NCBI RefSeq assembly: GCF_054482525.1
Contig: NZ_CM137006.1
Strand: one strand, 5' to 3'
DNA length: 64,000 bases
A program made the translations under genes and the position numbers. This document shows, piece after piece, positions 23,721 to 23,798 of the stretch. A model generated the notes under the pieces. It saw only the letters and a program-made list of their open reading frames with translations, ran no database searches and had not been told where the DNA came from. The stretch's first letter is position 1. Every line of letters starts with the position of its first letter.

Positions 23721-23798
23721 AACCTCCCTACACCGGGGTACTGCATTTTTTTTGTAGTACCCCGTATAATGTGAGGCTTTTAACAGGGAGAGGTCCGC

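Follow-up and report, generated by a model that had tools for sequence, protein, structure and literature searches.

What is the function of the strong inverted repeat that lies between elaB and menF, and what is to be made of the TATAAT element that adjoins it? The window, i.e., the whole stretch of 64,000 nt that was analysed, is E. coli chromosome and covers the elaA-elaB-menF-menD region; positions given here without a locus handle or a mention of MG1655 are those of the window, and the features of the elaB-menF junction are on its plus strand. The gene order in the K-12 RefSeq annotation is rbn, elaA, elaB, menF, menD, with which the names elaB and menF, previously assigned from the sequence, agree. 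According to the list of open reading frames and the RefSeq annotation of the identical K-12 sequence, elaB (23415-23720) encodes 101 aa and ends in a TAA stop codon at 23718-23720, whilst menF (23799-25094), the first gene of the menaquinone operon, encodes 431 aa from a GTG start codon. The Shine-Dalgarno region of menF, AGGGAGAGG (23785-23793), was recognised from its position, 5 nt before the GTG at 23799, and from its conservation. A 501-nt query around the repeat gave a match under elaB and menF in 5,421 of 5,426 complete E. coli genomes. As positions 23715-23801 are identical between the window and MG1655, experiments carried out in that strain are directly applicable; positions in the MG1655 record (U00096.3) are obtained by subtracting the window position from 2404442.

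Direct reading and a repeat search agreed on the geometry, which is as originally predicted: a 12-bp stem with one G-T pair, a seven-T loop and an adjoining TATAAT. The left arm, CGGGGTACTGCA, extends from C23734 to A23745 and the right arm, TGTAGTACCCCG, from T23753 to G23764; the 12 pairs are 92% complementary, with a single wobble (G23743-T23755), and enclose the 7 nt of the loop (23746-23752). The T-run itself comprises eight residues (23746-23753), the last of which pairs with A23745. TATAAT (23765-23770) abuts the stem and is separated by 28 nt from the menF start codon. The hairpin begins at the 14th nucleotide past the elaB stop codon, just beyond the footprint of a ribosome halted there. 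By itself the hairpin has a folding energy of -20.9 kcal/mol, with CGGGG/CCCCG at the base of the stem, and the RNA of positions 23715-23800 folds at -35.3 kcal/mol as compared with -20.5 +/- 3.1 for 200 shuffled sequences (z -4.7), none of which folded as well; the minus strand also folds well, as would any inverted repeat. In the minimum free energy fold of the E. coli sequence the hairpin is enclosed by an outer helix, in which GTTAAAACCTCC (23716-23727), containing the elaB stop codon, pairs with 23771-23784, where GTGAGG and CTTTTAAC make up a G-rich block and a T-run, of which GG and TTT are kept in all lineages. TATAAT then lies on one side of a 6 x 6 internal loop between the hairpin and the outer helix, the register of which (23716-23727/23771-23784) is specific to Escherichia.

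The repeat is a rare feature of its surroundings. Within the 64 kb of the window there is a single match to GGTACT-N9-17-AGTACC, where none would be expected, and only eight inverted repeats of the same class were found there. The hairpin is present at a single place per genome in 5,421 genomes and is thus not a dispersed repeat of the REP or ERIC kind. No feature is annotated at its position in the MG1655 record, and a scan of 22800-24300 against Rfam returned only chance matches to snoRNAs, with no relevant match at E<=10. Elsewhere in the window there is a perfect 13-bp stem with an 8-nt loop at 20455-20488, a hairpin with 17-nt arms flanked by A- and T-tracts, resembling a bidirectional terminator, at 2075-2122, and a hairpin with 14-nt arms and a 2-nt gap at 47065-47094.

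Mapping of the 3' end of elaB RNA had been put forward together with the original prediction as a means of checking it, and such an end has already been published. In the Term-seq data of Adams et al. 2021 (eLife, PMC7815308, supplementary file 1) a 3' end at MG1655 position 2380674, minus strand, is assigned to elaB with the class 'primary'. It has three entries in the file, which holds one sheet per growth condition, and two of these give 54,112 and 221,851 reads. The end corresponds to position 51 of the printed 61-mer, a convention which was checked on sgrS, and on conversion it falls at window position 23768, on the last A of TATA in TATAAT, 4 nt beyond the stem. It follows that the hairpin is the 3'-end stem-loop of elaB, marking the in vivo end of its RNA.

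The manner in which this end arises is a separate matter. The hairpin had been described as something other than a canonical terminator, and this description holds: a stable G+C-rich stem-loop and an in vivo 3' end are both present, whilst the U-tract of ~7-9 nt expected 3' of the stem of an intrinsic terminator is not. The tail of the stem, TATAATGT, has a T-score of 1.64, whilst the canonical terminators that follow elaB in Buttiauxella and Cedecea score 5.2-5.4; similarly, as a poor U-tract, UAUAAUGU gives a d score of -22, versus +23 to +30 in the canonical relatives. A built-in promoter and terminator scan neither called the hairpin as a terminator nor called any promoter. Given the poor U-tract, the 3' end may be a processing product rather than the result of termination at the hairpin; an end trimmed from a longer precursor would give the same Term-seq position, and the tail fits exonuclease trimming as well as it fits weak intrinsic termination. 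That many 3' ends near stem-loops are exonuclease-trimmed products is stressed in PMC7815308, and 3' stem-loops stop exonucleases after Rho-dependent termination or processing (Dar and Sorek, 2018; Wang et al., 2019, both cited in PMC7815308). The tables of PMC7815308 hold no Rho-region entry with coordinates 2380600-2380799. We therefore regard the hairpin as a terminator with a poor U-tract and/or an exonuclease barrier. It shares with intrinsic terminators and exonuclease-blocking 3' stem-loops a G+C-rich stem-loop placed after a stop codon and a mapped end a few nucleotides past the stem, and relatives carry a canonical terminator, a hairpin with U9, at the equivalent place; it differs from intrinsic terminators in that no U-tract follows the stem, the T-run occupies the loop and the stem is flanked on its 3' side by a -10 hexamer. 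A smaller hairpin at 23722-23739, for which the same T-run would serve as the U-tract of a terminator, was rejected: its stem is of 4-5 bp, its energy is -4.4 kcal/mol and the T-run lies 7 nt after the stem.

A comparison across genera gives a clearer view of which gene the stem-loop belongs to. A genome scan with MenF yielded 80 loci, in almost all of which elaB is directly upstream, and the elaB-menF synteny is found in ~75 species-level loci. With elaB as the neighbouring gene, TATAAT is in every case preceded by a stem-loop, which is the hairpin in 48 distinct sequences and, in 19 others, a terminator of the canonical type with T8-9. The hairpin clade includes Escherichia, Citrobacter, Salmonella, Enterobacter, Lelliottia, Kosakonia, Trabulsiella and Silvania amongst others, and has the layout CTCCCT, GGGTACTG, T-rich loop, CAGTACCCCG, TATAAT, G(A/G)GG, TTTT(T), AGGGAG and then, further on, GTG. 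In the canonical-terminator clade, whose 19 sequences come from Buttiauxella, Cedecea, Shimwellia, Atlantibacter and Franconibacter, the terminator (e.g., ATCTTACCCATTGGGTGGGAT + T9) is followed ~15 nt later by ACCACGTATAAT and then by the same G-rich block, T-run and Shine-Dalgarno sequence. Neither an adjacent elaB nor the hairpin is found in Yersinia, where the nearest upstream ORF ends ~490 nt away, or in a Parasutterella contig, where fbp is upstream; in these, CGCCCCGTATAAT (or CCCCGTATAAT) or CTTATAAT is kept 28-32 nt before the start codon. Since the stem-loop accompanies elaB and not menF, it would appear to serve the end of elaB, in agreement with the Term-seq data.

The alignment of 14 lineages also offers an origin for the unusual loop. 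The T-run that forms the loop in the hairpin clade falls in the same columns as that of the terminator in the canonical clade (the U-tract of the elaB terminator in Buttiauxella, Cedecea and Shimwellia), and judging from this alignment the all-T loop would most simply be a relic of a former U-tract.

Several of the loci compared carry features of their own. In a Franconibacter locus (L053, ~2440-2480) there is a second hairpin, CCCTGCA...TGCAGGG, which has TATAAT as part of its loop and is followed by T5; this hairpin is terminator-like, encloses the -10 and is downstream of the canonical elaB terminator. The intergenic regions of four loci (L051, ~2310-2440, and also L055, L057 and L076) contain insertions of ~125-150 nt, which on the basis of a GTGACTGGGGTGAGCG-like core we take to be ERIC-type repeats; that of L051 lies between the C-rich segment and the hairpin and those of the Buttiauxella loci upstream of the terminator, and hairpin and promoter are left intact. 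The Parasutterella muris contig (L024, 2501-3799), from a Sutterellaceae assembly, carries beside an fbp-like gene an enterobacterial-type menF with 69% identity and the leader GAGGTCCGC-ATG, which is due to either horizontal transfer or contamination. A 318-bp contig of Caballeronia mineralivorans (L080) matches residues 193-297 of E. coli menF at 99% identity, and for this reason is probably E. coli contamination.

We now turn to TATAAT, which had been noted as a promoter-like element and which proved to be conserved as expected of a -10. It agrees with the consensus at all six positions, and the only variants of the hexamer seen were TATAAT, TATACT and TATAGT; the positions T-A---T that are critical for a -10 are thus kept, and T, A, T, A and the final T are invariant in the 14 lineages. 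The motif CCCCG/CCACG + TATAAT is kept in lineages without the hairpin. Because TATAAT is retained where the hairpin, or an adjacent elaB, is missing, it would seem to be selected independently of the hairpin. The canonical-terminator clade is informative here: as a canonical terminator stands upstream, the promoter must lie in the ~60 nt from the terminator to menF, and TATAAT is the only good -10 candidate in this interval. Being the only plausible -10 after a strong terminator, it is very probably the -10 element of the menF (menFDHBCE) promoter, to judge by its conservation, with a predicted start at ~23775-23778. The right arm of the hairpin would then double as spacer DNA (~-24 to -13) of the proposed promoter. 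The best candidates for a -35 hexamer at 16-18 bp, CTGCAT and TGCATT, score 2/6, and there is no TGn extended -10, the bases preceding the hexamer being CCG. The element is nevertheless comparable to sigma-70 promoters without a -35 in having a full-consensus -10 at 28 nt from the start codon, a tolerance of TATACT and TATAGT, and a short leader with a strong Shine-Dalgarno sequence downstream; it differs from these in that its spacer is the 3' arm of the hairpin of the upstream gene and carries a conserved ACC(C/A)CG block. At the expected start of the menF transcript (23776-23781) is a G followed by a T-run (GCTTTT/GGTTTTT), of which TTT is invariant in 14 lineages; it is present at this position in all loci, and might act as a U-rich enhancer of translation or in reiterative initiation.

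The published start sites should be considered at this point, as they give rise to a different reading of the locus, in which TATAAT is not a promoter, menF is fed by transcription that begins at the elaB promoter or within elaB, and leaky attenuation at the hairpin sets how much of it enters the men operon. Its main evidence comes from Kim et al. 2012 (PMC3415461), who list 3,746 starts of exponential-phase cells: the elaB start is at window position 23389, the 5' ends assigned to menF are at 23685 (65 reads) and 23634 (41 reads), inside elaB, and none is found after TATAAT. These ends come close to a menF transcript starting far upstream, the outcome which had been named as counting against the original prediction. 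The poor U-tract, which suggests leaky termination, and the missing -35 element point the same way. Amongst the accessible start-site data no mapped start downstream of TATAAT was retrieved. On the other hand, there is no recognisable -10 upstream of the 23685 end, which may be a processing product, the dataset covers only those 3,746 starts from cells in exponential phase, and TATA.T is conserved behind strong canonical terminators as well as in lineages without elaB or the hairpin. We thus consider it very unlikely that the hairpin is an attenuator of this kind. Taken with the 3' end at 23768, the two 5' ends at 23634 and 23685 would bound RNAs of 135 and 84 nt from the 3' region of elaB, and these could be processing products, the outcome of internal promoters or a 3'-derived small RNA. 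Klebsiella may provide a natural test case lacking elaB, as the K. pneumoniae table of Kim et al. 2012 (PMC3415461) has orthologs of menF (KPN_02663) and elaA (KPN_02664) and none for elaB; no K. pneumoniae menF 5' end is given in that paper, and a protein search for the Klebsiella menF locus had only Escherichia, Citrobacter and one Salmonella protein among the matches listed.

Read-through is also central to the proposal that the hairpin is the centre of an RNA device which insulates menF: on transcripts coming from upstream, the C-rich segment CTCCCT (23724-23729), nearly invariant in 45 sequences, would mask the core AGGGAG (23785-23790) of the Shine-Dalgarno sequence, to which it is complementary, whilst transcripts from TATAAT lack the segment and would be translated. 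The consensus fold from RNAalifold does include the CTCCCT/AGGGAG helix (columns 13-16 with 77-80), and duplexes of the segment with its own Shine-Dalgarno sequence (-15.9 kcal/mol) are better than with those of other sequences (-14.8), none of 5000 permutations being as good, albeit in a test that ignores phylogeny. Trabulsiella, Kosakonia and Silvania have long helices (8-12 bp) peculiar to their lineages, and a long one is also found in one further locus (L030). In the hairpin clade the predicted probability of the Shine-Dalgarno sequence being unpaired is 0.21 in read-through versus 0.45 in promoter-initiated RNA (41 of 50 sequences), as compared with 0.36 versus 0.42 in the canonical-terminator clade. 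However, for Escherichia, including the window, it is 0.61-0.64 whichever 5' end is taken, with no predicted difference, the partners of the C-rich segment in these folds being GAGG and the T-run. Column-wise covariation is weak, pairing is to be expected between any C/U-rich tract and any stretch resembling a Shine-Dalgarno sequence, and the whole scheme depends on the candidate menF promoter. It is reminiscent of the fold-back inhibition of IS10/IS50 transposase translation on read-through transcripts, reportedly described by Davis, Simons and Kleckner in 1985, in that a segment upstream of the element's promoter complements the ribosome-binding site and only externally initiated transcripts form the helix; menF differs in belonging to a chromosomal biosynthetic operon, and the E. 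coli pairing is of 6 bp and is predicted not to win. On these folding predictions, masking may be a real addition in other genera and is not supported for the Escherichia sequence of the window; that it is the main purpose of the hairpin is unlikely.

The remaining alternatives concern the stem as DNA, and here the pattern of substitutions is relevant. No substitution is seen in the core GGGTACT/AGTACCC (23736-23742 and 23756-23762) amongst the 45 aligned sequences, so covariation, for which the term of RNAalifold is 0.09 kcal/mol, neither supports nor refutes the fold; only the apical and outermost pairs vary, often to an unpaired state. Such an invariant core hints at an additional, sequence-specific constraint. 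It could be that the right arm is frozen as promoter DNA, since lineages without the hairpin also conserve the ACC(C/A)CG that precedes TATAAT, and the left arm is kept to match it; alternatively, a protein could read the dyad. Amongst stem mismatches, 35 cells of the alignment are G-U and six A-C, and this bias is a mild sign of selection on the plus-strand RNA. Within E. coli, 1,371 of 5,422 records (approximately one quarter) differ somewhere in 23715-23801; A23756C, which breaks the T23742-A23756 pair in the apical stem, was present in both of the single-mismatch genomes checked, one of which is ST131, and in strain ECZP248 the loop T-run is shorter by one T. The suggestion, made in the original prediction, of a structure formed by DNA under supercoiling can now be set aside, the parts of that interpretation which stand being the end of the elaB transcript at the hairpin (Term-seq, 23768) and the conservation of TATAAT. 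Beyond the existence of the inverted repeat nothing speaks for a chance palindrome or a supercoiling-dependent cruciform with no role in RNA, and conservation of the hairpin across genera, an RNA 3' end exactly at its base and the G-U bias of its mismatches rule this out for practical purposes, leaving it exceedingly improbable. Short arms and a 7-nt loop also make cruciform extrusion energetically unfavourable.

A role as an operator merits more consideration. The dyad GGGTACT-N15-AGTACCC could mainly be a DNA operator at which a regulator would bind as a dimer or tetramer, be it the LuxR-solo SdiA or another factor, with the RNA hairpin as a by-product or second use; it would span ~-43 to -13 of the proposed menF promoter, and binding there would control transcription of the menaquinone operon. 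Across 45 distinct sequences of ~10 genera the two half-sites do not vary at all (100% invariant), whilst the loop and the flanking sequences do, and the distance between the half-sites hardly changes (mostly N15), a pattern more like that of a protein site than of a typical terminator; the dyad also covers the spacer and the -35 region, the classical position of a repressor. Regulation by SdiA has been reported by Schwieters and Ahmer 2024 (PMC11619404), in whose work SdiA repressed PmenFDHBCE-lux 105-fold in E. cloacae in an AHL-independent manner, activated it weakly in Salmonella (1.8-2.7-fold) and had no effect on it in E. coli MG1655; the right half-site has TAG in E. coli K-12, with no SdiA effect, versus CAG in most relatives. 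The dyad resembles LuxR-type operators (lux, tra and esa boxes) in having CTG...CAG over a promoter, together with the effect of SdiA in E. cloacae and Salmonella. Yet it is CTG-N11-CAG (CTG-N11-TAG in E. coli) within 31 conserved bp. Lux-type boxes are dyads of 18-20 bp with CTG-N10-CAG, to which it does not conform. The upstream region of fepE, which is repressed by SdiA, has no similar dyad in E. coli, and the literature defines neither an SdiA site at the menF promoter nor an agreed SdiA box. Furthermore, the dyad is missing from lineages that retain the promoter, complementarity in Citrobacter and Enterobacter reaches into TATA with a bulge, as befits a hairpin, the mismatches show the G-U bias, and the left arm could be invariant merely by matching a right arm constrained as promoter DNA. 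A mainly operator function is therefore, in our view, unlikely, though it would be compatible with an RNA role of the hairpin. Similarly, we give only a small chance to the dyad being in dual use, whereby as RNA it would end the elaB message, as DNA it would be an operator for SdiA or another regulator of the menaquinone operon, and the pairing of the C-rich segment with the Shine-Dalgarno sequence would also silence read-through; if true, this would explain the 105-fold repression in E. cloacae.

The explanation which we favour, and hold to be probable, is that elaB mRNA has this hairpin as its 3'-terminal stem-loop, and that the hairpin is superimposed on the menF core promoter. Polymerases that started at the elaB promoter, which is sigma-S-dependent, would transcribe the 12-bp stem, and the end of the RNA would be formed either by termination at this hairpin with its poor U-tract or by termination or decay further downstream, after which a 3'-exonuclease would trim the RNA as far as the stem. 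In the DNA, the right arm would be the spacer of a sigma-70-type promoter with TATAAT (23765-23770) as its -10, from which, going by conservation, the men operon mRNA would start at ~23776 with a ~23-nt leader containing the Shine-Dalgarno sequence. The alignment suggests that the all-T loop is what remains of an older U-tract, which belonged to a canonical terminator in an ancestor: the former 3' arm (GGGG...) would, in the hairpin clade, have gained complementarity to the promoter spacer (...CCCC), and because of this new pairing the T-run would have become enclosed as a loop. The coupling of elaB termination to menF promoter activity, which had also been proposed, is pure conjecture and unsupported.

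The hairpin is thus a real and strongly conserved, yet essentially ordinary, gene-boundary element. The 3' end of elaB was already catalogued by Term-seq, for which the hairpin supplies the interpretation; the practical value is modest and current understanding is not overturned. The locus does illustrate that a terminator and the promoter of the next gene can share the same 30 bp. For E. coli, TATAAT is a concrete, conserved candidate for the poorly characterised promoter of the menaquinone (vitamin K2) operon, whilst the 31-bp dyad offers a specific target for the control by SdiA reported in Enterobacter and Salmonella.
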